54,549 bases of DNA from NCBI GenBank assembly GCA_951800155.1, contig CATOJL010000001.1:1-54549 (forward strand), read 5' to 3'. How positions within the stretch are numbered: position 1 is the stretch's first letter; the number at the start of each line of letters is the position of its first letter. Made by a program: the position numbers and the translations under genes. Positions 22,331 through 54,234 of this stretch are shown here, one piece after another. The notes beneath the pieces were generated by a model, which ran no database searches, had not been told where the DNA came from, and saw nothing but the letters and a program-made list of their open reading frames with translations. The stretch comes from an uncultured Bacilli bacterium (GTDB lineage Bacteria; Bacillota_I; Bacilli_A; RF39; UBA660).

Positions 22331-23011
22331 TTAACTATTTAAAATTATTTTCTCTAATTTATGTTGTAATTCATACAAAGTATCTTTTGAAGATGTCTTT
22401 TCTCCTAAATCTTGCACAGCTTGCATCAATAGTTGTCTTTTGGATGGATTACTATGATTTGGAATTTCTTGTTCTGTCATTTTTTCATATACTCCTAAAG
22501 TTCCATCTTCTTTCGTTTTTGAATAGTAAGTTTTATTTGTTAAACTTGAGTGAAATTCTATATTCTTAAAATGATGTCTGTTCTTTGCTAATTCTCGGTT
22601 ATTTTCTGCTTCAAGCTCTTCCTCTTTCTGTACTTGTGTTGGTGTAATTTTATGTAATTTATCTGTCGCGCCGTGAATTACTGCCATTGTTTGTAATAAG
22701 CTATATGCCTTTTCTGGTTCCATGGCATAAAATTCTCTTACTCTCTTTTTTCCTTCAAAATTATCAATTGCTCTAAGATTTGGGTTTAATCCATCGATCA
22801 TTTCATGCAACTTTAAATCAGATAATCGGGTAGGAACTTCATAGTAAGCATATAAACGAAAGGCATATGGAATACACTCGCTTCTATTTAGATTCTTTAA
22901 GCGAGTTTCTATATTGTCTGCATAACCTATCTTTACATATTCTGGAAAGGATGGATTTGTTAATATGTAAATAACACCACTTTTTTCTTTCATAAAATGC
23001 AACCTCCTCAA
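22331..23011 (-). CDS. GIY-YIG / T5orf172-domain protein
   Basis: GVIYILTNPSFPEYVKIGYADNIETRLKNLNRSECIPYAFRLYAYYEV is the T5orf172/GIY-YIG-like block. Confidence 0.6.
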   Translation of the reverse strand: MRRLHFMKEKSGVIYILTNPSFPEYVKIGYADNIETRLKNLNRSECIPYAFRLYAYYEVPTRLSDLKLHEMIDGLNPNLRAIDNFEGKKRVREFYAMEPEKAYSLLQTMAVIHGATDKLHKITPTQVQKEEELEAENNRELAKNRHHFKNIEFHSSLTNKTYYSKTKEDGTLGVYEKMTEQEIPNHSNPSKRQLLMQAVQDLGEKTSSKDTLYELQHKLEKIILNS

Positions 23012-31050: not shown

Positions 31051-31479
31051 ATGGGAATTATAAAGCATACTTCTAAGGAGAGGGACTTACTTGCTCGACT
31101 GATGCGTGCAGAAGCAGTTGGAGAAGGAGATTTAGGTATGTTAATGGTAGGAAATGTCATACTAAATAGGGCATTGGCATCTTGCCTAACTTTTAAAAAT
31201 ATTCGAACAATTTCTGATGTAGTTTATCAAAATCCGGGCGGATTTGCAGGAGTCAATAGTTCTTTGTTTTTCTCAAATCCGACCACAAAAGAGCAAGCCT
31301 TAGCTGATCGGATTTTAAGGGGAGAATACTATCATCCTGCAACAAATTCTCTATGGTTTTATGCTCCAGCAGGGACAGATACTTGTAAAACAACTTGGTG
31401 GGATCAAAGGTTATCTGGGCGATATAAAAGTCACTGTTTCTATCAACCAGATACAGGGGTATGTGTAGAGATACATTAA
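31051..31479 (+). CDS. SleB-like cell-wall hydrolase (Hydrolase_2 domain)
   Basis: ERDLLARLMRAEAVGEGDLGMLMVGNVILNR...YHPATNSLWFY is the SleB C-terminal-domain signature. Confidence 0.8.
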   Translation: MGIIKHTSKERDLLARLMRAEAVGEGDLGMLMVGNVILNRALASCLTFKNIRTISDVVYQNPGGFAGVNSSLFFSNPTTKEQALADRILRGEYYHPATNSLWFYAPAGTDTCKTTWWDQRLSGRYKSHCFYQPDTGVCVEIH

Positions 31480-32135: not shown

Positions 32136-33248
32136 CTAGATTCTTAAAACTTGCCCTAAACGTAGTGTCGTTCCTGATAAATTATTTTTATTTTGAATAT
32201 TGGTCACCGTTGTTCCAAACTTTCTAGCAATACTATATAAAGTATCCCCAGATTTTACTGTATACGTATTTTCAGTTGGCGTTGATGGAGATGTTGCTGT
32301 AGTTGGTACTTTTAACACCTGCCCTAAACTTAAAAGATTTGATGTCAAATTATTAATTTTCATTAATTCCTGTACGGTTGTATTATACTCTCTTGCAATC
32401 GCATATAGATTATCTCCTTTTGTTACATAATAATTTTTATAGGATGGCACAGGAGTTGGCTGATTTCCTGTTGGTATAATTAACTTCTGACCTACAGATA
32501 AATTATTATTGGTTAAGTTGTTGGCATTAATTAAATCTGCCACTGACAAATTGTAAGTATTTGCTATTTTGTATAATGTATCCCCAGATTTTACAATATA
32601 TTCGTTGGTTATAATATCCTCATCTTTTTTCTCTGGCAATTTAATTTGTTGCCCTACTGATAATGTTGTAGAAGTTAGATTATTCAAATTCATTAATTCT
32701 GCAATAGTTGTATTAAATTTATTTGCAATCGCATATAGGCTATCCCCAGATTTTACTGTATATATTCCTGCATCTTCCTGCTCTTTCTCTATAGGAATAA
32801 TGAGTCTTTGCCCTACCGTTAATGTATTACTTGTTAGATTGTTGACTTTCTTTATTTCATCAACTGTTACACCGTATTTACGTGCTATACTATATAGTGA
32901 ATCTCCTTTTTGCACTGTATGTACTCCTTCTATATCCTCATTATATGTAACTCCAATATAATCACTTACCCCACGTACTACGGCATCTACATAATCTCGC
33001 CAATTATTTTTTAATTGGCTTACATCATCACTTGTACTATCTAAAAAACCATATTCGACAATAATTGGTTCTGTTATTCCTGTATTTCTATGTATAAAAT
33101 AATAATCTTTCGACGTATCACTAGGAAGCCTTCGCTGGTATGCTTTTCTAACATTTTGACCAGCTAGTCGAAGTTGTTCAAGCACATTGTTCGCCAATGT
33201 CCCCTTATTTCTTAATGCGTAAATTACTTCTGCACCATCGCCACCTCC
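32136..33248 (-). pseudogene. N-acetylmuramoyl-L-alanine amidase (Amidase_3 + 5 LysM), 3' segment of a split gene
   Basis: ...GGGDGAEVIYALRNKGTLANNVLEQL...ITEPIIVEYGFLDS is the C-terminal half of Amidase_3, followed by five LysM repeats (YTVKSGDSLYAIA...). The only start is an RBS-less TTG, and the frame stays open upstream to the att core. Confidence 0.85.
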
Positions 33249-33336: not shown

Positions 33337-35019
33337 CTACTTCTTAGCACCTGCTTTGCCTTTCTTACCATATGGATTTCTTGGTGCAGTGGTTTCTTTA
33401 TATTGAAACTCTGAATCAGGAATAATTCCATACTTAAATTTAATTGTGATCAATCGATTCTCATCTATCTCTATCTTATCAATCAAAGATAACAAGAGTT
33501 CTCTCTTAGGTTTATTCAAATCCAAGAGCTTCTTTATCTGTTCTGTATAATCCGGAATTATACTTAGATTCTTCTTTTGTTCTTGTACACCTTCTTTAAT
33601 AGCATCAATTTCTATATTAATTCTATTTAATTCAGATTCATGAGGTTTTATCATTTCTATATAAGAAGAAGCTGATACTATACCATTCATTCTATCTTCA
33701 TATAGACTATTCATGGTTTTTACAATTTGTGCTTTTCTACCTTCTAAGTTTTTGATTTTGATATTGCCATTATCAGTTATAGATTTCTCTCTATTTATAA
33801 TTTCTTGATTTAAGTCCTTAACATCAAACTGCTTTAAATACTTTGATAAAGTAGCTTCAACATGTTTCTTTAATTGTTCCTCCAAATAATTATATGGAAA
33901 GAAATGCGAAGAACATCTTTCTCTTCTAGGATCTCTTGAATACCTATTACAATTAACAGACCAATAATCATGATTTTTCCTATAAGCAATAGTTAATCTA
34001 TTTCCACATTCTTTACAATACAGTAACCCATCAAATAAACGAACTGGTCTCTTTGTTGTTCTGCAAATTCTATTATTTGATTTCTTTCTTTCTTGTATTA
34101 ATGCAAAAGTATCTTTAGAAACTAGAGGTTCATGAGTATCTTCAACAACAACCCATAAACTTTCATCTAAAGTTATTTTCTTCTTAGATTTATAGCTTAC
34201 CTTAGCTTGAGTATGTTGAACCATATCTCCTGTATAAATCCTATTATTAAGAATCTTCTTAACTGATGATATATTCCAATCATCTCTGAAAACAAGTCTA
34301 GTTGAATATTTAGTCTGCTTATAACCACTAGGTGTTACATATCCCTTATCATTAAGAATTGTTGTGATTTCTGACACTCCAATTCCCTGTTCTGCCATTC
34401 TAAATATTTCCTTAACAATAGGTGCAGTTTCTGGGTTAGGTATTAAATGACCTTTATCTTCTGGATCTCGCATATATCCAAAACAAGGTGCACTACCTAT
34501 AAATTTACCACTGCTTCTCTTATTGTTAAGAACATTTCTAATCTTGATAGAATTTTGCTTACTATAATAATCATTACAAGCAACAATAAATGTAGATGAG
34601 TCATTACTTGCTTGATTCTTAAAGCTATCATAACCATCTAATATAGAAACGAATCTTACTTGATTTTCAGGAAAGAAATTTTCCATGTAATATCCGGTCA
34701 TTACATGATCTCTACCCAATCTTGATAGATCTTTCACAATTACCATATTAATTTTCTTCTTTTTAATATCTTCAATCAATCTCTTGAATTGAGGTCTATC
34801 AAAATCAGTTCCAGAATATCCATCATCCACATAATCATCAACAATGGTATAATTATTAAATTTGTTTAAATAATTAACATTGATATAATCAGTGACTACA
34901 GATCTTTGATTTATAACACTTTCACTTTCAGCTTCATACTTCTTGTCTTTATCTTCTTGAGATAGCCTTATATATATACCAATATAAAATTGGACATCCA
35001 ACATGTAATTGTTAAACAT
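33337..35019 (-). CDS. Large serine recombinase (TndX/TnpX-like), rec1
   Basis: IYIRLSQED...ESESVINQR...DDGYSGTDFDRPQFKRLI...VIVKDLSRLGRDHV...VRFVSILDGYDS is the resolvase catalytic domain. It also has a recombinase domain, a Cys-rich zinc ribbon (CKECGN...C..C) and a coiled-coil tail. RBS aaggagg. Confidence 0.9.
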   Translation of the reverse strand: MFNNYMLDVQFYIGIYIRLSQEDKDKKYEAESESVINQRSVVTDYINVNYLNKFNNYTIVDDYVDDGYSGTDFDRPQFKRLIEDIKKKKINMVIVKDLSRLGRDHVMTGYYMENFFPENQVRFVSILDGYDSFKNQASNDSSTFIVACNDYYSKQNSIKIRNVLNNKRSSGKFIGSAPCFGYMRDPEDKGHLIPNPETAPIVKEIFRMAEQGIGVSEITTILNDKGYVTPSGYKQTKYSTRLVFRDDWNISSVKKILNNRIYTGDMVQHTQAKVSYKSKKKITLDESLWVVVEDTHEPLVSKDTFALIQERKKSNNRICRTTKRPVRLFDGLLYCKECGNRLTIAYRKNHDYWSVNCNRYSRDPRRERCSSHFFPYNYLEEQLKKHVEATLSKYLKQFDVKDLNQEIINREKSITDNGNIKIKNLEGRKAQIVKTMNSLYEDRMNGIVSASSYIEMIKPHESELNRINIEIDAIKEGVQEQKKNLSIIPDYTEQIKKLLDLNKPKRELLLSLIDKIEIDENRLITIKFKYGIIPDSEFQYKETTAPRNPYGKKGKAGAKK

Positions 35020-36396: not shown

Positions 36397-37029
36397 TTAT
36401 TCGCTCCAATCAGTGCAATTATTAATAGACTCACTATAATTACAAGATGACGATAAATCATACAAGTAATCAATTGTGACTTCTTCTGGCAATTTTGCAG
36501 TTAAGATTCGATCATCCAAAGTCATAATAGATTCTGTATCTACACAAAATATAACAGTGTGATGATGATATAAGCTTCTTAGCACATCGTAAACTTCCAC
36601 AAAATTTCTAGAAATTTGTGATAAAGAATCAATTACGATTACATCAAATCTCTTTTCATTTTGTAGATCCTCAAGAAGTTCTCTTAACTCTTCACGCTTG
36701 TCTAAAAAATCATGATTTGAGGTTTTATCTTTATACATACTATCTGCTACATCGACAAAATCTACATAGCTGGCAACTAATTTCCAGTGTGTATTATTTC
36801 CAATATAATTTCTTAAACGTTCAATACGTTTATTCAATTTTTCTTGCTGTGGTTGGATTTCATCTTCTGGGAAGTAACTCCACCCAAAATATTTTCCGCT
36901 TACATAACTTGCCACTCTTAATGGAAAGCATTTAAGTGCTTCCACATTACTTACATATCGTGATAGATCTATGCATCCATTTCCTTGAGTTTGTTTAACT
37001 TGATTTCTTAATATTTCTTTTCCTAACAT
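36397..37029 (-). CDS. Resolvase-catalytic-domain-like protein lacking the catalytic Ser/Arg (degenerate)
   Basis: RVASYVSGKY stands where Y-x-R-x-S is expected. RFDVIVIDSLSQISRNFVEVYDVLRSL...TVIFCVDTES mirrors the D-R-L-x-R block. ATG 37029 has the perfect RBS gaaggag. No HTH is obvious. Confidence 0.4.
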   Translation of the reverse strand: MLGKEILRNQVKQTQGNGCIDLSRYVSNVEALKCFPLRVASYVSGKYFGWSYFPEDEIQPQQEKLNKRIERLRNYIGNNTHWKLVASYVDFVDVADSMYKDKTSNHDFLDKREELRELLEDLQNEKRFDVIVIDSLSQISRNFVEVYDVLRSLYHHHTVIFCVDTESIMTLDDRILTAKLPEEVTIDYLYDLSSSCNYSESINNCTDWSE

Positions 37030-37284
37030 TCTATTTTCTCCTTCTCTATTTATTAAAAACTTGTTAATCACCATTTCCCCCTTCAATTTCATTTGCCCTC
37101 ATTCATATAAACCACGTCCTTCCTTTGCCCTGAGTTGCCAATGTGCAAAAAAAATGCAAAAGCCCCCAAGGAGAACTTCCCTAAGGGAACCGCCTACAGA
37201 GTTATACGAGAACAAAATGGACACTTTCACAAAAATGTTAATTTTTTTTAAAAAAGTGCTAAAAATTTTAAAAAAAGTATTAAA

Positions 37285-38088: not shown

Positions 38089-38195
38089 AACACCTTTTTA
38101 ATACCGTGCTATAGAAGCACCTGTCAATATCTTTAATGCAATTTCAAATTGTTAGCAAAATGAAAAATGAAAAAAATGAAAAAAAATAAAAAAAA

Positions 38196-38222
38196 TGAAA
38201 AAAAGAATAGTCACTGCTATTC
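38196..38222 (-). terminator. Rho-independent terminator of the 41736->38234 operon
   Basis: Minus strand reads gaatag-cagtga-ctattc followed by a long T-rich tract, 12 nt after the stop. Confidence 0.55.
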
Positions 38223-38233
38223 CTTATTGAATA

Positions 38234-39307
38234 TTACATATAGTTGTTTTCATCTAAAGCAAACAAGCACTCACTAACTGCTTGACCTCTACCAAATATG
38301 AATAGAATCTTTGAGAAGATATCTATAAACATATCCTCGCAATTATGTTCTTTCATAACACCTACATACTCATCCCATTTCGTAGGATCTTTCTTAGCTC
38401 GACCTTTACGAATAAAATCAAACATTTCTAAGGCCATATCTTTATCAATAGAGTGATCTAGCAGATACTCCAGTATATCTTCACGAGTAGCTATAAGATT
38501 ATCAAGAGTGATTTTTCCATCAGCTACTAAAGCATCTTGATTATAACTCCATACATCAGTACCATGTCCTATGCTTTTTACTTTGACATAATCCTTTATG
38601 GTCTTAGGTTGCAATATCTCCGCAATTTTTTTCTCAAGCTCATTAGTAAGTACATTTTCTAAACCTTTAACCTTATACTCACTTATAGGTTGCTTTTCAT
38701 CAATCCTAATGGTTAAAAATTCATCTTTATATTTTCTATAATCATCAACTGTCTCGAGTATTAGCTCTTCATTTAATCTAAGTGAAATATCTTTAAGCAT
38801 AGGGCAATTTCTACTATCCTTATACCCCAAAAATGGAATTAGTAAATAATGGTTATCTTCAAAAGCATTTACTTCTTCTATATCTTCCTTTTCGTGTGTA
38901 CCATAAACAAATCTAACTTTATCACAATAATTACTACCTACATATATTAGAAAATCAAGTGGAATAGCATGAATTAAATCCATACAAATATTGCTTTCGT
39001 TAAATAATTCATAAGGTAAATTATACTTTATAGGATCTACATCAGTTATACCTAATACATGTAATAACAACAAATTATTAATTGTACCTCTAAAGTGATA
39101 TGAAATAGGAAAATCAGATCTATATTCCTTATATTTGTAAAATATCTCAATAAGAAATAACAAACCCTTATCATATAGAAGATCAAGTTCTTTGTTACAT
39201 CTTCTAAATAAATCTAAGTTCTTATATTTAAGAAAGAATTTTTCCTTAAGTTCATCAAACAAATATATCTTTGCATTCATATTTAAATGCTCATACTTCT
39301 CTAGCAT
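38234..39307 (-). CDS. Miniaturised PolC-type DNA polymerase III alpha-like protein with degenerate active site
   Basis: Two blocks match PolC as I recall it: FRGTINNLLLLHVLGITDVDPI..LPYELF (palm entry) and KSIGHGTDVW...ATREDILEYLL...MFDFIRKGRAKK...FIFGRGQAVSE (thumb/fingers). Only 357 aa. The catalytic PDIDL position reads CMDLI. Confidence 0.5.
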   Translation of the reverse strand: MLEKYEHLNMNAKIYLFDELKEKFFLKYKNLDLFRRCNKELDLLYDKGLLFLIEIFYKYKEYRSDFPISYHFRGTINNLLLLHVLGITDVDPIKYNLPYELFNESNICMDLIHAIPLDFLIYVGSNYCDKVRFVYGTHEKEDIEEVNAFEDNHYLLIPFLGYKDSRNCPMLKDISLRLNEELILETVDDYRKYKDEFLTIRIDEKQPISEYKVKGLENVLTNELEKKIAEILQPKTIKDYVKVKSIGHGTDVWSYNQDALVADGKITLDNLIATREDILEYLLDHSIDKDMALEMFDFIRKGRAKKDPTKWDEYVGVMKEHNCEDMFIDIFSKILFIFGRGQAVSECLFALDENNYM

Positions 39308-39332
39308 ATCCTTAGTCTTTGTATTTTACCTT

Positions 39333-40307
39333 TTATATAATCCAACATCCATGTAAATAATCCTCTACATTGATATCAGAAACATTAACAGTAGGAGAAT
39401 ATAAAAATAATGAATAAACCTTATCACCCTTAACAACGATAATATCATCAGAATCACCAATTAAACCTATATCGTCAACATCCATGAAACGTGAATAGTC
39501 AATTGCACCAAAATTAAAATCTCCATAATACTTAACTGTCTTTTCATGTGTTAAAGCTGCAATACCAAACTCGGTAAAAACAATCTTCTTATAATGGTAG
39601 TTGTTATCGTTTATAAAATCATGTCCACATCTTCCTTTTTCCGTTAGGCAAGTGATAGTCCTATCAGCACCAATAGCACATATAGTTCGGATATCAATAA
39701 GAGTAATATATTTAACATCATCAAGTATCTTCTTACCATTTACAAAAGCAGTACCATCCTTTAATAATACGACAACCTCTTGATAGCAAGAAACCGCTAT
39801 ATCATCAACCATATCAACTGGAATATCATTAAGATAATCTGTATACTTTGCTATTACATTATATTGTTCCTCAAGATCCATACTGCTATGAAACTCATCC
39901 ATATCTATACCGAAGGTGGTATGATTATAATTTTGTAATGCATAAATACAGAACACCTTGTCTCCACTAATCTCATCTAGAAAAGGTAAATCCTCATCAA
40001 ATGCATCATCTACCACAGAAACATTACCTGCAATCCTGTACTTTAACCCAAACTTAATATCTTGTACTAAGGTTTGAAAATCTGCATTTCTATTACCAGC
40101 TAATAAAGCAGACATTTCTCCACTATCATCCAATATCCCTAAAAGAACAAACATAGCATCATCTAATTCATAAATCTTTTTAGATACCACATTAACATCA
40201 AGAGTAACATTTTTAACTCTTCCAATAAAACTATCAACCTTAGATATAAAAGAATCATGTGGAATTTTAGTCTCTATCTTCCTAAAGTTAATCTTCTTTG
40301 TCACCAC
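39333..40307 (-). CDS. Hypothetical protein: N-terminal OB-fold-like (PolC OB-like) domain plus C-terminal RCC1-like repeats
   Basis: FVLLGILDDSGEMSALLAGNRN..DIKFGLKYRIAGNVSVVDDAFDEDL resembles the PolC/DnaE OB domain. Four blade-like repeats (IAVSCYQEVVVLLKDGT, ICAIGADRTITCLTEKG, FGIAALTHEKTVKYYG, IGLIGDSDDIIVVKGDK). Confidence 0.3.
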   Translation of the reverse strand: MVTKKINFRKIETKIPHDSFISKVDSFIGRVKNVTLDVNVVSKKIYELDDAMFVLLGILDDSGEMSALLAGNRNADFQTLVQDIKFGLKYRIAGNVSVVDDAFDEDLPFLDEISGDKVFCIYALQNYNHTTFGIDMDEFHSSMDLEEQYNVIAKYTDYLNDIPVDMVDDIAVSCYQEVVVLLKDGTAFVNGKKILDDVKYITLIDIRTICAIGADRTITCLTEKGRCGHDFINDNNYHYKKIVFTEFGIAALTHEKTVKYYGDFNFGAIDYSRFMDVDDIGLIGDSDDIIVVKGDKVYSLFLYSPTVNVSDINVEDYLHGCWII

Positions 40308-40405
40308 ATCAATAACCTCCTTAATTATACTTAAACTATACCATAAATAATCACTAATTGTATCACATAGTTATAGAATAGCAATTGCAACTCTCGTAGA
40401 AAACA

Positions 40406-40876
40406 CTACTTATTCTTACCATTACGTTTTAGTTGATTATACATTGCTCTTTCTTTTGGACTTGCATTAAACATAGCATGATCATCCAAAATCTCTTGTG
40501 CATTTGGATTTTCTATTAATGCTACTCCATAAAAGAAACCAAAGACTCCACCAACAATTGCAAAAATAATTGGAATAGGACCTTCGCCCATGAACATTAG
40601 AGAACCTAAACCGTAACCCATAGATCCAAGAATTGCTCCCATAACAATCCCAGATACTAAACTTTTTATACTTACACCAATTCCAGCTCTATTAGTATTT
40701 GGATTTTCCTTAACATTATTATAACCACAATTCTTACATAAAATGTTGTTAAAACTTTTTCCACACTCAGGGCAAAAATGCTCAATTGAATATTCAGTTT
40801 CATATCCACAATGAACACACTTAGTTGATTTATCGCTAATTTCTTTTCCACAACTTCCACATTTAATTAACGCCAT
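40406..40876 (-). CDS. Zinc-ribbon membrane protein (double CxxC pairs plus glycine-zipper TM helices)
   Basis: MALIKCGSCGKEISDKSTKCVHCG, then CPECG...CKNCG, then Gly-rich TM segments. Confidence 0.6.
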   Translation of the reverse strand: MALIKCGSCGKEISDKSTKCVHCGYETEYSIEHFCPECGKSFNNILCKNCGYNNVKENPNTNRAGIGVSIKSLVSGIVMGAILGSMGYGLGSLMFMGEGPIPIIFAIVGGVFGFFYGVALIENPNAQEILDDHAMFNASPKERAMYNQLKRNGKNK

Positions 40877-40903
40877 AAATTTACTTCCTTTCTTACACTC
40901 AAA

Positions 40904-41431
40904 TTAATTAGTCTTTGCATAATCTTGATATGTGCCACCTGTATCATCACAACGTAAAATTGTATCTGAATCTTTTAAAGAACAATTATATTGTATACTG
41001 CCATAACTATAAATTTTTACATCTGATCCATATTTCTCATAAGTATATGCACGAGGATCCGCACAAGCATTAGTTTTAATATTACATAGTTGGTAAACTA
41101 CTTGGCCATCATCCTTAAATTTAAAAGTTTCTCTCATTGCATCACCGAAAACATTTTCATACTTAGGTGCTGAGTATTCAGCGTTTAATGTACTAGAAGA
41201 TAATTTGCCTTTATGTGTAGAATTAGTAAAAAGAGGAATAACCAAAATTATAAAAAACAAAATGAATACACTTAAAAAAATAAAAATACCATGCTTATTA
41301 TGCCTTTTCAATCTATTATTAACTTTACCATTACTTGGAAGTGAAACAGAAGTAGGTGCACCACAATGAATACATATGTCAGTTGTATCGCTAATTTCTT
41401 TTCCACACTCAACACATTTAATTAATGCCAT
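40904..41431 (-). CDS. Zinc-ribbon membrane-anchored protein (paralogous N-terminus to 40406..40876)
   Basis: Start moved to ATG 41431 (MALIKCVECGKEISDTTDICIHCG), matching the paralogue. One TM helix, then a Cys-containing extracytoplasmic domain. Confidence 0.6.
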   Translation of the reverse strand: MALIKCVECGKEISDTTDICIHCGAPTSVSLPSNGKVNNRLKRHNKHGIFIFLSVFILFFIILVIPLFTNSTHKGKLSSSTLNAEYSAPKYENVFGDAMRETFKFKDDGQVVYQLCNIKTNACADPRAYTYEKYGSDVKIYSYGSIQYNCSLKDSDTILRCDDTGGTYQDYAKTN

Positions 41432-41484
41432 TAAATCACCATTTTTTCCTTTCTTTATAAAACAATAAAAATATTCATTACCTA

Positions 41485-41736
41485 TTAATTGTTCCAAACT
41501 AATTTTTCAACAAATAGAACAACTAATACGATCTCAAAAGTAAATAACAATATCACAATATTATTACCAAAACCAGCAGATGTTGATGTTAAAGCTAGAT
41601 CATATGGAATTTGGGTAGCTTTGCAAATAGTATCTGTAATAGCCCTATTATATGGTGAAAACAGAATAGATGAACAAACAATTAATATATTTTCACATAT
41701 TATTAGTGTTCTATTTTCAAAACAACCTATAAACAT
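41485..41736 (-). CDS. Small hydrophobic protein, first gene of the operon
   Basis: Preferred over the overlapping plus-strand ORF because of its RBS (aaaggag, 9-nt spacing), two hydrophobic segments and co-orientation with the downstream genes. Confidence 0.35.
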   Translation of the reverse strand: MFIGCFENRTLIICENILIVCSSILFSPYNRAITDTICKATQIPYDLALTSTSAGFGNNIVILLFTFEIVLVVLFVEKLVWNN

Positions 41737-41884
41737 AAAAATTTAACTCCTTTCTATTCAATGATAAGTTTTTCTTCTAAAGAAAGTATTATCACATTCA
41801 TTATACCACAAAAGTAACATTTGAAGATACCATCATTTCAAAACATACATGAGAAAATAATATTATGTAAGGTGGAGGTGTAAT

Positions 41885-42190
41885 ATGGGCAGAAATAATC
41901 ATTCATATACAGATGAACAGATAATAGATTATCAAGAAATTAAAAAAAATTTATGCCAAAATATGCGTATTGCACAAAAGCTTGCTAAAATAAAAGTAAA
42001 AGATGCAGCACCAGCACTTGGCATAGAACCAGAATCATTAAAAAGAATAGAAGCTCCGAGTTCAAAAATAGGTCCATCACTGGAAGTATTATGTGGTGCA
42101 ATTGAATTATATAATCAAAGTCCAAACTTCTATTGGATAGATTGGGAAGAAAACCAAAAGTTATTAGAAAGCAAAAAGGAAGAGACCTAA
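41885..42190 (+). CDS. XRE-like HTH regulator, divergent from the operon
   Basis: RBS ggtggagg. MRIAQKLAKIKVKDAAPALGIEPESLKRIEAP...LEVLCGAIELYNQSP follows the HTH_3 pattern. Confidence 0.5.
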   Translation: MGRNNHSYTDEQIIDYQEIKKNLCQNMRIAQKLAKIKVKDAAPALGIEPESLKRIEAPSSKIGPSLEVLCGAIELYNQSPNFYWIDWEENQKLLESKKEET

Positions 42191-42414
42191 CTCTTCCTTT
42201 TAAAGTATGCAATATACATTGTTTTTGAATCATCTATTGAATTTAACTCTTCCAAAGAGTATCCAGCAATATGAATCAAATAATCCATTATTTCAAACTC
42301 TTTAATATTGTCTTTCTTGTTCTTGAAAGTTATTTCAATTTTCTCCGGAAAATTATAAGATAACTTCTCTTTTATCATATCAAGATTAGGATTATGTAGT
42401 AACAACTTATTCAA
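42187..42414 (-). CDS. Hypothetical protein (75 aa)
   Basis: ORF only. Co-oriented with 42500..43234 and 85 bp downstream of it. No motif. Confidence 0.35.
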   Translation of the reverse strand: MNKLLLHNPNLDMIKEKLSYNFPEKIEITFKNKKDNIKEFEIMDYLIHIAGYSLEELNSIDDSKTMYIAYFKRKS

Positions 42415-42499: not shown

Positions 42500-43234
42500 T
42501 CAATAAAAATACTTCAAGTATCTCTTCTTAGAATAGTAACTCTTGATCAGTTTGTCATAATCAGCAATACAGGAATCAATATACTTCTTCTTAAAATCAT
42601 CAACAGATTTCTTTCTTCTAGTAAGATCCATATCATTATACTTTTCTAAACGACAATCCATATTCTCGAACAATCTCATTACAGGTCCTCGACCTCTTTG
42701 ACAAAATGCTATATCAGACATCAGAACTAATATCTTCTTGCTTTCTTCTAAACTGTACTCCTCAACATTCTTCAATGGAACTTGAATATCATTTAGAACA
42801 TCTTTAATAAAATCAACATACTTAGCATTACTAATAAAACCACTAATAATCAGCTTGTTAAGTAGTTCCTCAAAAGTAGCATCATCTAGCTTGTAGAAAA
42901 AAACTCGTAATTTACTACTTTTATAACTTAACAGGTTAGTTAGTTCTAACTCGCCACACTCTATAACATAATCTATACAGGTAGATAAAGAAACAATATT
43001 ATAGAAGTATAACTTCGCATATCGTATAAACTCATTCATAATGTTTAGAAATTGCTTAGCAGTAATACCATCATCTTTAGCATATACATCAAAAGAAAAA
43101 GTTCGTTCATCAATCCTAGAAATCTCTTCACTTAATCTCTTACGACGAATAAGATCATACAACATCATGTCATAAGTGGATCCCTCGTTAAGTATAATAT
43201 ACTTCAACAACTCAATCTTAGTTTCAGTTTTCAA
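42500..43234 (-). CDS. Hypothetical protein (244 aa)
   Basis: A long ORF with protein-like composition. No recognisable motif. Confidence 0.5.
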   Translation of the reverse strand: MKTETKIELLKYIILNEGSTYDMMLYDLIRRKRLSEEISRIDERTFSFDVYAKDDGITAKQFLNIMNEFIRYAKLYFYNIVSLSTCIDYVIECGELELTNLLSYKSSKLRVFFYKLDDATFEELLNKLIISGFISNAKYVDFIKDVLNDIQVPLKNVEEYSLEESKKILVLMSDIAFCQRGRGPVMRLFENMDCRLEKYNDMDLTRRKKSVDDFKKKYIDSCIADYDKLIKSYYSKKRYLKYFY

Positions 43235-50403: not shown

Positions 50404-50688
50404 CTAATTTAACATATGCAAGAGTACCTCCGCACCTCCTGCATTTATGTGATTAGATATTACAATAACATCCGAATTATTTCCATAGGGCGCCAATATA
50501 CGTTCAACCCTTTCTGTTGGAGTCAAAGTTTCATCTGTAGTACGTGTTATACTTACAGGTACCCCCAACTCATCAAATTTGTCATACATATATTTTGAAA
50601 TATCCAAGGTTAAATTCTTTTCTACAATACCATTTCCACTTGCTCCACCATCAGTTCCACCATGGCTTGTATCGGTTTTCCCCAAAAA
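50404..50688 (-). pseudogene. Amidase_3 N-terminal half: middle segment of the split amidase gene
   Basis: GKTDTSHGGTDGGASGNGIVEKNLTLDISKYM...VSITRTTDETLTPTERV...DVIVISNHINAGG is colinear with the first half of the Amidase_3 domain. TAG/TGA lie in frame just upstream, and there is no RBS. Confidence 0.85.
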
Positions 50689-50719: not shown

Positions 50720-52324
50720 TTATAAATCAAGATTCCACTCTAATCTGATTTCTCGTGTATTTGTTTCCTTATTCAGCTTACCAATATATATTTTTTCAAT
50801 AAATTCATCAACTATTATTTTATTTAGTTCTTTAATATTTTTATATTTCTTAAGTATGCTCTCAATATCTTTTGAATTTTGTTTTCTTGTTTCAGTTTCT
50901 CCTAGCTCGTTTTCTATCTCTTCAAGTCTAGCTTGATAACTTTCAACATCTTTTGTATATTCTTCCCTTAACATTTGAAAATCTTCTTCAGATATAACAC
51001 CTTTCATCTTATCTTGATAAAGATTTTTAAAGTATAATTTGCTTTCATTAATCTTTTTCTCAAGATTTGCTTTTTCTTTATTAAGATTAGTTATAATTAT
51101 ATCTTGGTTGTTTTCTTTATTAAGTTCTTTTTCTAAATCACTTTTTAATAATGCTTCATTACATTTTTTTAATAGTTCATTGATTGCATTTAGTACATAT
51201 TCTTCTAATAGATCTAGTCTTATAGAACGATAATTGTCGCAAGTATGATATTTTTTATTACCTTTGCATTGAAGATATGCTCTTTTTTCTACTTTTCCAC
51301 CTGCACAAGTAATATTGCATTGATTTCTCATAAATATTCTTCCACATTCTTCACAATATACTTTTTGACTTAATATATGAATTTTACCATTAGACATAGG
51401 TTTCTCATGTTTACCTAATCTTTTTTGTACTAAATACCAAGTTTCTTTATCGATGATTGGCTCGTGTGCATTTTCAGTTCTGCACCATTCAGACTTAGGA
51501 ACTTTTTTTGATTTATGATTTTTATAACTAATATTTGTTCTTTTCCCTTGTATTAAATTGCCAATATAAACTTCATTTTTAAGCATTTTAGCAATTGTAT
51601 CAGAAGTCCACATACCTGTTGTTTTATAATTAAAGTTGCAACAAACAAAATTACTTCCAATAGATTTTTTATAAAGAGATGGGCATAATATATTTCTTTC
51701 ATTTAGACTTGCACAAATCCTATGATAACCAATTCCTTCTTTATATTTTTCAAATATTTCCCTTACTACATAAGCAACATTTTCATCAATTATCAACTTG
51801 TGTTTATCGTTAGGATCTTTCAAATAACCATAGGGAGCAAAACTTCCCATATATAATCCATCTTCTCTTTTATTCTTTAAAGATTTTTTAACATTATTTG
51901 ATAAATCCTCTAAATACCATTCATTAACAAGCCCATTAATTTGTCTTGATTTTTTGTTAGCTTCATTATCAGTATCTGCATTATCTACAATACTAACAAA
52001 ACGAACTCCCCATTCAACAAACTTATTATGAAGATATTTTTCTATTACTTCCATATCTCTTGAAAATCTACTTTGTGTTTTACATAGAACAATATTAATT
52101 CTTCCTGATTCACAATCTTTAATCATTCTTTCAAAATCAGGTCTATAAGTTCCTGCTCCTGAATAGTCATCATCTGAATATATATCAACGATTTCCCATT
52201 CTTGCTCTAAAGCATATTTTAAAAGCATACTTTTTTGATTAGCAATTGACTCACTATCATCATTTTTGTTTTTCTTATATCTATCTTCATCAGATAGTCT
52301 ACAATATACACCTACCTTTTCCAT
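50720..52324 (-). CDS. Large serine recombinase (TndX/TnpX-like), rec2
   Basis: VGVYCRLSDED...DSESIANQK...DDDYSGAGTYRPDFERMI...QSRFSRD...VRFVSIVDNADT, a recombinase domain, a zinc ribbon (CEECG...C..C) and a coiled coil. RBS gaggtga. Confidence 0.9.
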   Translation of the reverse strand: MEKVGVYCRLSDEDRYKKNKNDDSESIANQKSMLLKYALEQEWEIVDIYSDDDYSGAGTYRPDFERMIKDCESGRINIVLCKTQSRFSRDMEVIEKYLHNKFVEWGVRFVSIVDNADTDNEANKKSRQINGLVNEWYLEDLSNNVKKSLKNKREDGLYMGSFAPYGYLKDPNDKHKLIIDENVAYVVREIFEKYKEGIGYHRICASLNERNILCPSLYKKSIGSNFVCCNFNYKTTGMWTSDTIAKMLKNEVYIGNLIQGKRTNISYKNHKSKKVPKSEWCRTENAHEPIIDKETWYLVQKRLGKHEKPMSNGKIHILSQKVYCEECGRIFMRNQCNITCAGGKVEKRAYLQCKGNKKYHTCDNYRSIRLDLLEEYVLNAINELLKKCNEALLKSDLEKELNKENNQDIIITNLNKEKANLEKKINESKLYFKNLYQDKMKGVISEEDFQMLREEYTKDVESYQARLEEIENELGETETRKQNSKDIESILKKYKNIKELNKIIVDEFIEKIYIGKLNKETNTREIRLEWNLDL

Positions 52325-52604: not shown

Positions 52605-53147
52605 CTACATATAATCTTTCATCAATTCTTGCATTTCTTTTTCTTCTTCAGGTGAAAGTGGAATTGCTTCACATCTCACACCATCCCATAGCTCTACACC
52701 ATCAGAATCTTTCGTCATAATTGGACCAATATTATTTCTATTATTTTTTCTATTATTAATTCTTCTATTATGGTAGTAATTTTCTTCTATAGGTTCTTGG
52801 AAATTTTTTTCTACCACATTAGAATTTGCTTTACTTACTATTTCAGGATTCAAATATATTCTTCTTTTACCATCAACATATTTGATGATAATGTATTTTT
52901 GTTTTTTAAGTCTTGATAAAGAATTTGAAATTGTTTTAGTACCTAAACTTAACTCCTTGGCAAAATAACTATTACTAGCATAGCAATATTCCTTATTGTA
53001 TGATAGTGAATTAATTATTCCTAATATCAACTTATCTGTTGATGAACAATTGCTATCATTTAATATTATTCTTGGCGTTGCTGTATAAGACCTTATAAAA
53101 GGTATAATATTCCTCCTAGAATAAATGATAGTTTTGGAATTAACCAT
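52605..53147 (-). CDS. Winged-HTH domain protein (replication-organiser/regulator-like)
   Basis: YCYASNSYFAKELSLGTKTISNSLSRLKKQKYIII is a wHTH pattern common in mobile-element replication/regulation proteins. Confidence 0.4.
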   Translation of the reverse strand: MVNSKTIIYSRRNIIPFIRSYTATPRIILNDSNCSSTDKLILGIINSLSYNKEYCYASNSYFAKELSLGTKTISNSLSRLKKQKYIIIKYVDGKRRIYLNPEIVSKANSNVVEKNFQEPIEENYYHNRRINNRKNNRNNIGPIMTKDSDGVELWDGVRCEAIPLSPEEEKEMQELMKDYM

Positions 53148-53224
53148 TTTGATTTGGTAAAAGTTTAAGGTACTAACATAAGTCTACCAAGCTTACTGTA
53201 CCATTACTACTAGGTGTCCTTAGA

Positions 53225-53485
53225 CTATCCTAGTATATTAATCGTGTACATTCCATTTGAGTATTCCTTAAATAGTAAATATTTGTAATCTTCTAATTTT
53301 CTTAAATTATTTTTTAATCCTTGATTACTAATCCTTACTACTTGTTGTAACTCTCCAATATTTAGATCTGTAATGATTCGATTTTGACCTTTAGAATAAA
53401 TATACGAATATATTAATTTTCCCTCAGGTTTAATTCTCTTATCATTCCATAATCTCTTTGGAACTTCTAGTTGAGTATTAGTCAT
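53225..53485 (-). CDS. Small winged-HTH protein (paralogous fold to 52605..53147 N-terminus)
   Basis: LIYSYIYSKG...LNIGELQQVVRISNQGLKNNLRKLEDYKYLLF. Confidence 0.4.
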   Translation of the reverse strand: MTNTQLEVPKRLWNDKRIKPEGKLIYSYIYSKGQNRIITDLNIGELQQVVRISNQGLKNNLRKLEDYKYLLFKEYSNGMYTINILG

Positions 53486-53640
53486 CCATTTCCTCCTTTC
53501 TTGTGTTGACTTTTACATCACTTACAAATCTAATATATCATTATATGATGTAATTGTCAACATAATAATTACAATTTTGTTGATTTTTACAACAATTCAT
53601 GTTACAATACTTTTAGCAATTAAAAAGGAGTTTTTAAGTT

Positions 53641-54234
53641 ATGAAAAAAAATACTACTGAACTTGGTAAATATATTTGTGAAGCAAGGACATCAAAAGGT
53701 ATATCGCAAAGACAACTTGCTAAACTATCTAATATGGATTGTGCAGAGGTTTCGAGGATTGAAGCAGGAAAAAGGCAAAAACCAAATGTACTATTTTTAA
53801 AAGGTATAGCAGAAGCACTTAATTTAAGTTTAGTTAAATTAATGGAATTAGCTGGTTATAATGATATAGATATTAATTGGGGCATGGTTGCGACTGAAAG
53901 AAGATCATATAAAGACTATCAAGATGAATTAGATACTTATGTAAAATTCTATTATGATGTTCTTAATGACATTGAGGAAAGAAGAAAAAATGCTTTAGAA
54001 TGCAAAAATATATGTACTGACTTAATTGATAGAATTGAAAATCCTGATATTTATAAAAAGGAAATTACAATGGATGAAGTAAAAGATGCACTAAAAGAAA
54101 TGACTAGAATAATGCGACCAAATTTAGAAAAACTTGATAAATCTAAATATCCTAAAACTGATCCTGCATTACTTAGAAAGTCAGTTCTTATTGATATTGA
54201 TGAATACAAACAAAAACATAATACTAATAAATAA
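53641..54234 (+). CDS. XRE-family repressor-like protein with C-terminal helical domain
   Basis: LGKYICEARTSKGISQRQLAKLSNMDCAEVSRIEAGKRQKPNVLFLKGIAEALNLS is HTH_3. Divergent from the wHTH genes, a lysogeny-switch-like layout. Confidence 0.75.
   Translation: MKKNTTELGKYICEARTSKGISQRQLAKLSNMDCAEVSRIEAGKRQKPNVLFLKGIAEALNLSLVKLMELAGYNDIDINWGMVATERRSYKDYQDELDTYVKFYYDVLNDIEERRKNALECKNICTDLIDRIENPDIYKKEITMDEVKDALKEMTRIMRPNLEKLDKSKYPKTDPALLRKSVLIDIDEYKQKHNTNK

Follow-up and report, generated by a model that had tools for sequence, protein, structure and literature searches.

A quarter-size PolC derivative, predicted to be catalytically inactive, on a mobile island of an uncultured gut Bacillota bacterium

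Relation to PolC and to other short or inactive polymerases

The closest described relative of the protein considered here is PolC, the C-family DNA polymerase III alpha of Gram-positive bacteria (structures 9QPC and 9QRN from E. faecium and 3F2B from G. kaustophilus). Its palm helices, Pol-beta-like sheet and whole fingers superpose on a 357-residue protein, here called mini-PolC, which is encoded in the window, that is, the whole stretch of 54,549 nucleotides that was analysed. The fingers also align by sequence (LSHGTDVW ... RDDIMVYL ... VRKG), and phmmer searches of PDB sequences gave E-values of 4.2e-21 for 9qpc and 6e-17 for 3f2b, while the Pfam DNA_pol3_alpha score was barely over its cut-off. 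The AF2 model (pLDDT 93, pTM 0.90) matched PolC structures in Foldseek with TMq values of 0.69-0.75, the best being 0.75 at E=5e-13. Mini-PolC is therefore a true PolC derivative, far above chance, and an earlier sequence-only reading, which had called it PolC-like and a quarter of the usual size, was right on both counts. At 357 residues against about 1,440 in PolC, it consists of the N-terminal helices of the palm, a degenerate Pol-beta-like sheet and the fingers, and nothing more. It lacks the N-terminal domain, PHP, DnaQ exonuclease, thumb, clamp-binding motif and (HhH)2 or other duplex-binding parts; the structural comparison thus agrees with the earlier remark that exonuclease and PHP parts were missing. 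Unlike PolC, mini-PolC is accessory, island-borne and patchy in its distribution, and the OB domain resides on a separate polypeptide. The protein is acidic (pI about 5, net charge -18), so that strong DNA binding by mini-PolC alone is not favoured.

Outside the family, the nearest relatives are compact metagenomic proteins of 650-760 residues with a PHP-palm-thumb-fingers order (unnamed; P0207, P0226 and P0347), and chromosomal PolC comes next. The compact forms keep PHP and thumb and often the PDxDLNF/KxDILGH motifs, and by these motifs they may be catalytically active. A second metagenomic class of about 330-400 residues (P0221), made of palm plus fingers, has lost PHP, thumb and the catalytic triad as in mini-PolC, but still contains FPKAH, has less of the palm left and gives a strong Pfam match. 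Both kinds of relative end right after the fingers, as mini-PolC does, and occur on islands alongside genes for integrases, DnaB_C-like proteins, Macro and ARH. Judged by its GRGQAVSEC motif and by extra beta-strands at residues 131-205, the family in the window is the most derived of these short PolC-like forms, and it appears to be an undescribed variant of the C-family polymerases.

ImuB, the inactive Y-family polymerase in the ImuA-ImuB-DnaE2 mutasome (PMC12926913), offers a parallel in that a polymerase fold stays under selection after loss of its carboxylates, presumably in a binding role. However, it belongs to another polymerase family and keeps clamp- and partner-binding motifs as well as a fixed set of operon partners, neither of which was seen for mini-PolC.

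The operon, its island and its control signals

The chromosome of this uncultured gut Bacillota bacterium carries a mobile island of about 17 kb (about 33.2-50.4 kb of the window) whose insertion interrupts an amidase-LysM gene. The island is of the serine-recombinase type and the genes for mini-PolC and its OB/propeller partner are accessory cargo on it. The locus lies between recombination genes and restriction-modification genes, a SwaI-like restriction enzyme and methyltransferases being present in the window, in agreement with the mobile-element setting given in the sequence-only reading.

Five co-directional genes on the minus strand are separated by gaps of exactly 53, 27, 98 and 25 bp. 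The first encodes a hydrophobic protein of 83 residues (41485-41736) with two hydrophobic stretches. The second (40904-41431, 175 residues) and third (40406-40876, 156 residues) encode a zinc-ribbon and a double zinc-ribbon protein according to Pfam, with Zn_Ribbon_1 scores of 27.3 and 29.3 bits respectively (cut-off 25) and a DZR score of 26.4 for the shorter protein. The 175-residue protein has one transmembrane segment (residues 44-73) and a C-terminal domain of extracytoplasmic type, and its likely start is the ATG of MALIKC, which has a ribosome-binding site ahead of it, where the listed 197-residue reading frame begins at an upstream TTG. Hydrophobic, transmembrane-like windows were found at about residues 64-122 of the 156-residue protein. 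The two are paralogues over the first 45 or so residues (BLASTP E=1e-10, 51% identity over 45 residues), in line with the paralogy noted before. The fourth gene (39333-40307) encodes a 324-residue OB and propeller protein and the last (38234-39307) encodes mini-PolC.

Past the mini-PolC stop codon, sequence and RNA folding indicate an intrinsic-terminator-like structure on the same strand (38178-38225), with a hairpin of 9 bp (-7.1 kcal/mol; z=-2.9 relative to shuffled sequences) and a long T-tract after it; a consensus terminator scanner missed it because the stem is AT-rich. Facing the operon across a divergent control region (41737-41884) is a gene for a putative HTH regulator of 101 residues (41885-42190, plus strand). 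Genes, gaps, divergent gene and terminator had all been described in the sequence-only reading and were found in place, but its XRE-type label for the divergent gene is weak, the matches being to Pfam HTH_31 at E=0.12, below the cut-off, and to a PDB 'transcriptional regulator' at E=0.44. The regulator is 86-89% identical across all relatives of the element, including those without mini-PolC, and it may control the operon. The control region contains promoter-like sites on both strands. Upstream of the first gene is an extended -10 element, TGGTATAAT, at 41808-41800 (minus strand), and a good ribosome-binding site (AAAGGAG) precedes the ATG of the 83-residue gene. Between these two lies a 15-nt inverted repeat (41762-41776/41780-41794, 80% complementary, 3-nt spacer), which is a candidate operator.

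Loss of the active site and the OB partner

The active-site comparison uses the residue roles reported for PolC in PMC12592400. Two MAFFT alignments place N106 and C108 of mini-PolC at the DxD catalytic positions, and the third catalytic aspartate, in the KLDILGH motif, is replaced by a near-invariant Pro158. A complete metal-binding triad was absent from every alignment of mini-PolC. The degeneracy recognised from sequence was thus real, but more than the single aspartate named at that time has gone. The dNTP- and base-stacking motif YMFPKAHAAAY of PolC reads FIFGRGQAVSE, where E346 occupies the position of the base-stacking Tyr1284 and Gln342 replaces a histidine. With its catalytic carboxylates lost, mini-PolC is a conserved pseudo-polymerase.

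The 324-residue protein consists of an N-terminal PolC-type OB fold (about residues 1-125) and a C-terminal beta-propeller of about four blades (about residues 160-300) that resembles RCC1 and BLIP-II and is of a protein-binding type (AF2 pLDDT 82.7). The top Foldseek match was the OB domain of PolC 3f2b (E=7e-5, rmsd 3.2 over 106 columns), followed by BLIP-II 3qi0 (E=3e-4), which the C-terminal half resembles with about four blades and not seven, and fused to an OB fold. Furthermore, an OB profile searched against PDB sequences gave PolC (residues 244-329) as the sole significant match, at E=3.8e-4. The propeller half shows four repeats of the type 'hhhLxxDGxhxxxG', while Pfam RCC1 gave no match to the protein. 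Both the PolC-OB-like start and the four RCC1-like blades proposed earlier are therefore supported by Foldseek, and the OB part by a sequence profile as well.

Elsewhere each half is found as a protein of its own. Stand-alone OB proteins of 122-136 residues are encoded directly upstream of mini-PolC in L017, L021, L023, L035 and L040, whose mini-PolCs are only 39-57% identical to that of the window. An OB-type gene was observed upstream in 9 of 29 lineages and a PolC-type OB gene nearby in 8 of 44. The two genes keep the N-to-C domain order of PolC, and the OB protein and mini-PolC are pieces of PolC minus its catalytic residues.

Possible roles and gene neighbourhoods

We tentatively favour a reading in which mini-PolC is a non-catalytic mimic of PolC, carried as mobile-element cargo, that acts as decoy or competitor. 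It would work by binding and not by DNA synthesis, offering the OB, fingers and template-entry face of PolC; with that face it would tie up, or vie for, a molecule that otherwise docks on PolC. The likeliest target would be a factor by which a competing phage, element or toxin targets PolC, with mini-PolC as its decoy; alternatively, the target could be the primed-template or single-stranded DNA substrate itself. The role would lie in conflict between elements, be it defence, anti-defence or immunity, rather than in replicating the element that carries it. As suspected earlier, nothing matching a described system was found in PADLOC, NCBIfam or PHROGs, and since PADLOC gave no match the defence reading is guilt by association only.

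A less probable alternative is that mini-PolC helps mobile elements to replicate or become established. It would then be a structural, non-catalytic subunit, alone or alongside a protein of OB/SSB type, and together with DnaB_C-like ATPases encoded by the element (and a DnaG Toprim core in sister classes) it would bring the host replisome to the DNA of the element, or load it there, for example on rolling-circle or incoming single-stranded DNA. A DnaB_C-like ATPase with intact Walker motifs adjoins mini-PolC in 8 of 29 and 9 of 44 lineages, L135 and L138 have an SSB-like gene two genes upstream, and a sister mini-PolC, also without the triad, belongs to a tight DnaB_C-DnaB_C-DnaG(Toprim)-miniPolC operon between integrase genes (L127). 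The island in the window also encodes a Rep_ORF2/G2P-type initiator, but it has no helicase or primase gene, and mini-PolC lacks regions for binding the clamp or tau that would be an obvious means of drawing in the replisome. In addition, mini-PolC was not found in IMG/VR, and BFVD yielded full-length phage polymerases only. The same type of element occurs without mini-PolC (L012/L013), and many copies are isolated genes in non-mobile surroundings, for example on chromosomes amid housekeeping genes (L004); together these indicate that mini-PolC is dispensable for the element itself.

It is improbable that the five genes together with the regulator constitute a single dedicated system, the model of the sequence-only reading, with the zinc-ribbon membrane proteins as sensors or anchors and the OB/RCC1 protein and mini-PolC as effectors. 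The tight spacing, the single extended -10 promoter, the single terminator and purifying selection on all operon genes would suit such a system, and the arrangement is retained in L001-3 and L014. However, the full operon is confined to relatives at least 79-89% identical (L001-3 and L014-16), and zinc-ribbon genes were observed near mini-PolC in just 2 of 29 and 2 of 44 lineages. In the sister element L012/L013, the regulator (86% identity), the 83-residue protein, both zinc-ribbon proteins and a homologue of the 324-residue protein (57% identity) are present, but the operon ends without mini-PolC and has extra unrelated genes. The 156-residue protein is kept in the close element family only, and the 83-residue protein is kept on the operon strand in L001-3 (82-90%) and L012/L013 (53%). 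Within the 98-bp gap that precedes the OB gene, a promoter-like site carrying a TG motif (40384-40357) further suggests a separable OB/mini-PolC sub-operon. The five-gene "system" is specific to one lineage, and we infer that the membrane proteins with zinc ribbons form a separable module confined to this lineage, rather than partners that are required. Most mini-PolC genes elsewhere are without the operon partners seen here; the possibility, raised beforehand, that the genes are not co-conserved was largely borne out, except for the OB-to-mini-PolC adjacency, the sole one to recur across distant lineages.

Equally doubtful is a ligand-directed activity in a remodelled pocket, mini-PolC then being no mimic but a binder or sensor of a nucleotide or second messenger, or an unconventional nucleotidyltransferase. 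The strongest family-specific conservation does fall on the former nucleotide-binding elements, namely HFRG-x-x-NN (the GS motif), YLLIP and GRGQAVSEC, the last being the most conserved motif of the family, and residue 110, two past C108 (D110 in the window), is acidic in most members although not invariant. The missing triad, the Glu346 and Gln342 replacements and the loss of the primer-holding thumb and duplex-binding parts all speak against it.

A decaying fragment of a phage or ICE polymerase gene, or an ORF-calling artefact, might be suspected from the short length and the missing catalytic residues, but this was checked and is refuted by at least 115 sequence clusters of 333-370 residues (about 340) with the same start and end, near-invariant family-specific motifs, a dN/dS of 0.16-0.20 (about 0.17), the high-confidence model and flanks free of remnants of PHP, exonuclease or HhH. 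The stop codon of the gene is TAA, it contains no TGA in frame, and the frame upstream of it is full of stops; TGA serves as stop in the window, and this standard code argues that mini-PolC is not an artefact.

Several further observations bear on the reading of mini-PolC as a non-catalytic mimic. GRGQAVSEC departs from PolC at exactly the active-site face, which counts against faithful mimicry there; the OB partner occurs in only about 20-30% of lineages, and the DnaB_C-like, SSB-like and DnaG Toprim neighbours would fit a DNA-processing role equally well. Counting for the mimic are tandem divergent mini-PolC paralogues, the SwaI-like enzyme and methyltransferases of the window, and the conflict-type genes around relatives (Bsp6I restriction-modification, GmrSD, Mrr, Macro, DUF1810, Fic, ARH and SIR2), with DUF1810 and Macro as recurrent neighbours.

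A non-catalytic PolC palm-fingers module

The protein encoded by the last gene of the operon (357 residues; 38234-39307, minus strand), here called mini-PolC, is a selected, non-catalytic palm-fingers module of PolC that is carried, together with a PolC OB module, as mobile cargo. The sequence-only reading had likened it to PolC by eye, and this assignment holds in Pfam, phmmer and AlphaFold2/Foldseek comparisons. Residues 30-102 match PF07733 (DNA_pol3_alpha) with 24.1 bits (cut-off 23.9), and the finger domain PF17657 was found below its cut-off (E=5e-3). In phmmer searches of the PDB sequences, residues 151-351 align with residues 1113-1311 of Enterococcus faecium PolC (E=4e-21) and G. kaustophilus PolC follows (6e-17), with the same outcome when the family profile was used. 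From a 42-sequence alignment, AlphaFold2 gave a confident model (pLDDT 93, pTM 0.90). The best PDB matches of this model in Foldseek are three E. faecium PolC structures (E~5e-13, TMq 0.74-0.75; 9qrn with TMq 0.75 and probability 1.00), followed by G. kaustophilus PolC and then by DnaE-type enzymes (TMq ~0.6). The protein has the Pol-beta-like palm and the fingers of a C-family polymerase and is homologous to Pol III alpha.

mini-PolC begins at the palm helices and stops about 10 residues past the last fingers motif, and therefore lacks the N-terminal domain, PHP, exonuclease, thumb, clamp-binding motif and (HhH)2. A PolC-type C-family polymerase, in contrast, has a thumb, a clamp-binding motif, (HhH)2 and a DnaQ exonuclease insert. 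MAFFT alignments show a gap of ~100 columns at the position of the PolC thumb and adjoining palm strands, and the missing thumb stretches the Foldseek alignment of the 357 residues to ~470 columns. No match to PF02811 (PHP), to PF14579 or to an exonuclease was found in Pfam, so that Pfam and the structure comparison agree with the earlier remark that exonuclease and PHP parts are absent.

The catalytic residues D972 and D974 of E. faecium PolC (PMC12592400) were observed to align with N106 and C108 of mini-PolC in two independent alignments. An acidic residue two positions past C108 (D110) is common in the family but is replaced by W, Q or K in some members. In C-family enzymes, such as that of E. 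coli (D555), the KLDILGH motif supplies the third carboxylate with its Asp, and in the mini-PolC family this position is occupied by a proline (Pro158) which is at least 90% conserved. The three carboxylates (PDxD and the Asp of KxDxLG) are therefore not present as a set; the active site had been correctly described as degenerate but the loss of one Asp was too low a count, as N106, C108 and P158 stand at the triad positions. The FPKAHAAAY motif of PolC bears the nucleobase/inhibitor-pocket residues Y1274, F1276, H1280 and Y1284 (PMC12592400); its counterpart in mini-PolC, F336-I-F338-G-R340-G-Q342-A-V-S-E346-C, is nearly invariant across the family.

At 90% identity the family falls into at least 115 clusters, none of them named and almost all with a length of 333-370 residues, and a profile search of 1.84 billion representatives gave 53 clusters at E<1e-30. 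The dN/dS of mini-PolC against its relatives is 0.16-0.20. A pseudogene or decayed polymerase fragment is ruled out by a family of this size and selection that has lost the triad yet keeps a constant length, and the conserved motifs, the cluster count, the profile search and the dN/dS together refute this reading. An alternative genetic code or ORF splitting is also ruled out: the code is standard (TGA terminates 8 of 52 long ORFs), and the operon genes stop at TAA or TAG and hold no in-frame TGA. A phage origin was rejected on searches of IMG/VR and BFVD. IMG/VR gave no match with the mini-PolC family alignment and mainly partial palm matches with a sister-class alignment, which we take to be ordinary phage polymerases, and a Foldseek search of BFVD gave only full-length phage Pol III alpha. 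The component HMMs of PADLOC-DB 2.0 do not match the five proteins, the regulator or the neighbours without family, and only sub-threshold PolC/DnaE matches were found in PADLOC, PHROGs and NCBIfam. Literature searches on a mini or inactive PolC, on PF07733 in defence and on DUF1810 gave nothing relevant.

The OB-propeller protein, the operon and the island

The gene just upstream of mini-PolC (39333-40307, minus strand) encodes a 324-residue protein whose model (pLDDT 82.7) shows an OB barrel at the N-terminus and an all-beta repeat domain at the C-terminus. The top Foldseek match is the OB of G. kaustophilus PolC (3f2b; E=7e-5, rmsd 3.2 Å over 106 columns), with E. faecium PolC also found (9qpc; E=1e-3, rmsd ~3 Å); BLIP-II, an RCC1-like propeller, ranks third and the OB folds of RPA and AspRS come next. 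When a profile of ten OB sequences was searched against all PDB sequences, PolC was the sole significant match (E=3.8e-4, PolC residues 244-329). Residues 1-125 form an OB specifically related to the N-terminal OB of PolC. The C-terminal half contains four sequence repeats and matches BLIP-II in Foldseek with E=3e-4, at a TMq of only 0.25-0.28 and with no RCC1 match in Pfam. The OB call made by eye for this gene was right, as was the original observation as a whole, and the RCC1 call is plausible. Since mini-PolC and the OB both match PolC, both adjacent genes derive from PolC, and genes 4 and 5 follow its domain order from N to C. The 324-residue protein has separable halves, as stand-alone OB proteins of 122-136 residues and a stand-alone propeller half of 204 residues are found elsewhere.

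All six ORFs described from the sequence were recovered at their positions, and the gaps of 53, 27, 98 and 25 bp are exact if gene 2 starts at the MALIKC ATG (41431), the start used here, and not at a TTG further upstream. An extended -10 (TGGTATAAT, 41808-41800, minus strand) and a strong RBS precede the operon, and a 15-nt inverted repeat located between them (41762-41794) could be an operator. The proposed terminator is present past the mini-PolC stop as a 9-bp hairpin (-7.1 kcal/mol, z=-2.9) with a long T-tract behind it, and was overlooked by the consensus scanner because its stem is AT-rich. The same scanner reports a promoter-like site with TG inside the 98-bp gap ahead of gene 4 (40384-40357), from a scan that as a whole showed no enrichment relative to shuffles. 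The zinc-ribbon proteins of genes 2 and 3 match PF13240 (29.3 and 27.3 bits, cut-off 25); both have a CxxC...CxxC ribbon and a TM segment, with hydrophobic windows present. The divergent 101-residue putative regulator, described from the sequence as XRE-type, resembles Cro/C1-type HTH proteins below the cut-off (HTH_31, E=0.12, 13 bits against 27) and has a weak PDB match to a transcriptional regulator (E=0.44).

Ordinary chromosomal genes fill the left 30 kb of the window (P-type ATPase, PGI, MreB, SpoIID, MurA, FBA, LDH, RlmH, DnaB, L9 and WhiA). An N-acetylmuramoyl-alanine amidase-LysM gene is interrupted: a 93-residue Amidase_3 N-terminal fragment is located at 50404-50685 and a C-terminal part with five LysM repeats at 32136-33197. 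These halves lie ~17.2 kb apart and the DNA between them, about 33.2-50.4 kb, is therefore an integrated element. Besides the five-gene operon, it encodes a large serine recombinase (33337-35019) abutting the LysM part, a Rep_ORF2/G2P-type protein, two resolvases of which one is degenerate, an HsdM-like methylase, and a SwaI-like endonuclease accompanied by an N6 methylase, in agreement with the earlier placement of the operon on a mobile element with recombination and R-M genes. A megablast search with 24.5 kb gave no near-identical DNA in the plasmid and phage collections.

Several smaller features were noticed in and around the island. In L012 and L013, loci of a sister element, the recombinase gene likewise abuts an amidase-LysM gene. 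A second large serine recombinase (with DUF4368) and HTH_36 and HTH_3 genes are located at 50720-52324 and 52605-54234, just past the split amidase fragment, and may be part of a second, adjacent element. A 231-residue protein (36397-37092) shows a partial, weak match to the Resolvase N-terminal domain (E=9e-10); its relatives have 148-189 residues and stand in tandem in L001 and L012, and it looks like a member of a degenerate resolvase-derived family. Conserved proteins of 75 (42187-42414) and 244 residues (42500-43234) without family match lie between the regulator and the SwaI-like R-M genes, the former being present in all relatives of the element. A Hydrolase_2 gene (SleB-like cell-wall hydrolase; 31051-31479, also in L006, L007, L013, L025 and L044) recurrently adjoins islands with a mini-PolC or OB-propeller gene and may mark a common insertion hotspot. 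In the housekeeping chromosome, a T5orf172/MUG113-domain gene (22331-23011) adjoins a stretch (about 23-26 kb) in which GC skew and gene strand are locally reversed.

Neighbours of mini-PolC and possible roles

All relatives belong to MAGs of uncultured 'Bacilli/Tenericutes/Clostridia' from the gut of rabbit, mouse and human. The five-gene arrangement is kept in close relatives (79-89% identity). L012 and L013 also carry the resolvase, Rep and recombinase genes, with identities to the window of 86% for the regulator, 53% for the 83-residue hydrophobic protein, 74% and 65% for the zinc-ribbon proteins and 57% for the OB-propeller protein; there the operon stops at the OB-propeller gene and mini-PolC is absent. 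A 329-residue protein encoded upstream of the L012 OB-propeller homologue was found to be unrelated to either window protein. Further afield, mini-PolC genes 39-57% identical to that of the window occur without any zinc-ribbon gene.

Neighbours at most three gene positions away were counted for 29 mini-PolC lineages (90% identity). An OB-type gene upstream on the same strand was observed in 9, a DnaB_C-like ATPase of ~212 residues and a ~220-residue protein without family (f3) in 8 each, DUF1810 in 6, a second mini-PolC copy in 4 and zinc-ribbon genes in 2. With metagenome loci added (44 lineages, at most four positions), the counts were f3 10, DnaB_C-like ATPase 9, PolC-type OB 8, DUF1810 and a second mini-PolC copy 6 each, resolvase 5, Macro 3 and zinc-ribbon genes 2. 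The PolC-type OB is the only partner specific to mini-PolC and it is optional. Some copies are preceded by HTH-XRE proteins that carry a fused, weakly OB-like domain, and Bsp6I and other R-M systems, GmrSD, Mrr and Fic are also found around mini-PolC genes. f3 and two further recurrent neighbours (f25 and f26) have no match in Pfam, PHROG or the PDB sequences; f3 has a PHFH-type motif that is perhaps reminiscent of DUF4160. ORFs of ~100 residues grouped with mini-PolC in L133-L154 are a single-linkage artefact without BLAST match. At four sites (L017, L018, L019/L044 and L020) two divergent mini-PolC paralogues lie a few kb apart in one co-directional array, with DnaB_C-like ATPase and f3/f25 copies interleaved. 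In L135 (5955-6287; also L138 and L154) a 110-residue SSB-like OB protein, which lacks the long acidic tail that is usual, is encoded two genes upstream of mini-PolC and a type I HsdM gene lies directly downstream.

mini-PolC would act by binding and not by polymerisation, because it is predicted to be unable to polymerise, lacks the grips on duplex DNA and clamp and is acidic (pI ~5). Our leading suggestion, made tentatively, is that it mimics PolC and either sequesters a PolC-directed factor or substrate or competes for it; a role in conflict between elements would be consistent with the R-M, Macro and DUF1810 neighbourhoods and with the tandem divergent paralogues. It is rather less likely that mini-PolC is a structural accessory working with the DnaB-like and SSB-like proteins of the element in DNA establishment or replication, since a role in the element's own replication is at odds with its dispensability for the sister element, with solitary chromosomal copies and with its absence from the viral collections searched. 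A remodelled ligand-binding pocket is improbable as its function. The original proposal of a five-gene system has partial support but is just as improbable: the arrangement is kept in close relatives, but zinc-ribbon genes accompany mini-PolC in so few lineages, and the sister element lacks mini-PolC, that the five genes are not one conserved system. If the decoy or competitor role is true, it would be a new, replisome-centred principle in conflict between phages or MGEs and their hosts and would indicate natural PolC-binding factors, which are relevant because PolC is an antibiotic target.

Other short PolC-like proteins

C-family polymerases have been divided into four groups that always bear PHP (PMC12926913; PMC3919608), the domain being universal according to a 2026 survey (PMC12926913), whereas mini-PolC is without it. 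Neither survey describes such short forms. mini-PolC is apparently an undescribed variant of the C-family polymerases, which gain a conserved derivative without PHP, thumb and catalytic triad, plus a detached PolC OB domain. The core replicative polymerase appears here to have been turned into a non-enzymatic module that mobile elements of uncultured gut bacteria carry.

The nearest relatives outside the family are unnamed proteins of 650-760 residues with PHP, palm, thumb and fingers which also end straight after the fingers, and some of them (P0207, P0226 and P0347) retain PDxDLNF and KxDILGH. Several further classes of palm-fingers proteins (330-400 residues) are likewise without the triad, and short triad-less PolC-like proteins amount to more than 50 representative clusters. 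One class occurs in L127 (6012-9053; also L128) as part of a tight DnaB_C-DnaB_C-DnaG(Toprim core)-miniPolC operon, which has short integrase ORFs on its flanks and a Macro gene close by. The first DnaB_C protein is degenerate (170 residues) and the second has intact Walker motifs (231 residues), the 245-residue DnaG core keeps EGxxD and DxD but lacks the zinc-binding and helicase-binding domains, and the 350-residue mini-PolC has no triad. Another triad-less short class adjoins ARH, Macro and SIR2 genes. It is conceivable, although unlikely, that mini-PolC belongs to a wider, undescribed class of replisome mimics in mobile islands of gut Bacillota, comprising triad-less palm-fingers modules, PolC OB domains that stand alone, DnaB_C ATPases with a truncated N-terminus and DnaG Toprim cores, and found next to ADP-ribose erasers (Macro, ARH, DUF1810 and SIR2). 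Such proteins would be decoys that absorb phage or toxin factors targeting the replisome of the host, or dominant-negative fragments stalling replication on infection.

In L129 (7841-9995; also L130) a 664-residue PHP-palm-thumb-fingers protein with an intact triad (PDFDLNF, KLDILAH) ends directly after the fingers. It is preceded by a 58-residue PHP ORF with a 17-nt overlap, which may be a frameshift, and its neighbours are ARH, DnaB_C-like and integrase genes. Apparent split forms were also observed (P0420-P0437 with P0377, P0378 and P0362), in which PHP and palm (~460 residues) are separate from a finger-only protein (~210-264 residues); the longest contigs of pairs such as P0429/P0378 and P0435/P0377 are equal in size, which suggests that both parts are encoded on the same contig.
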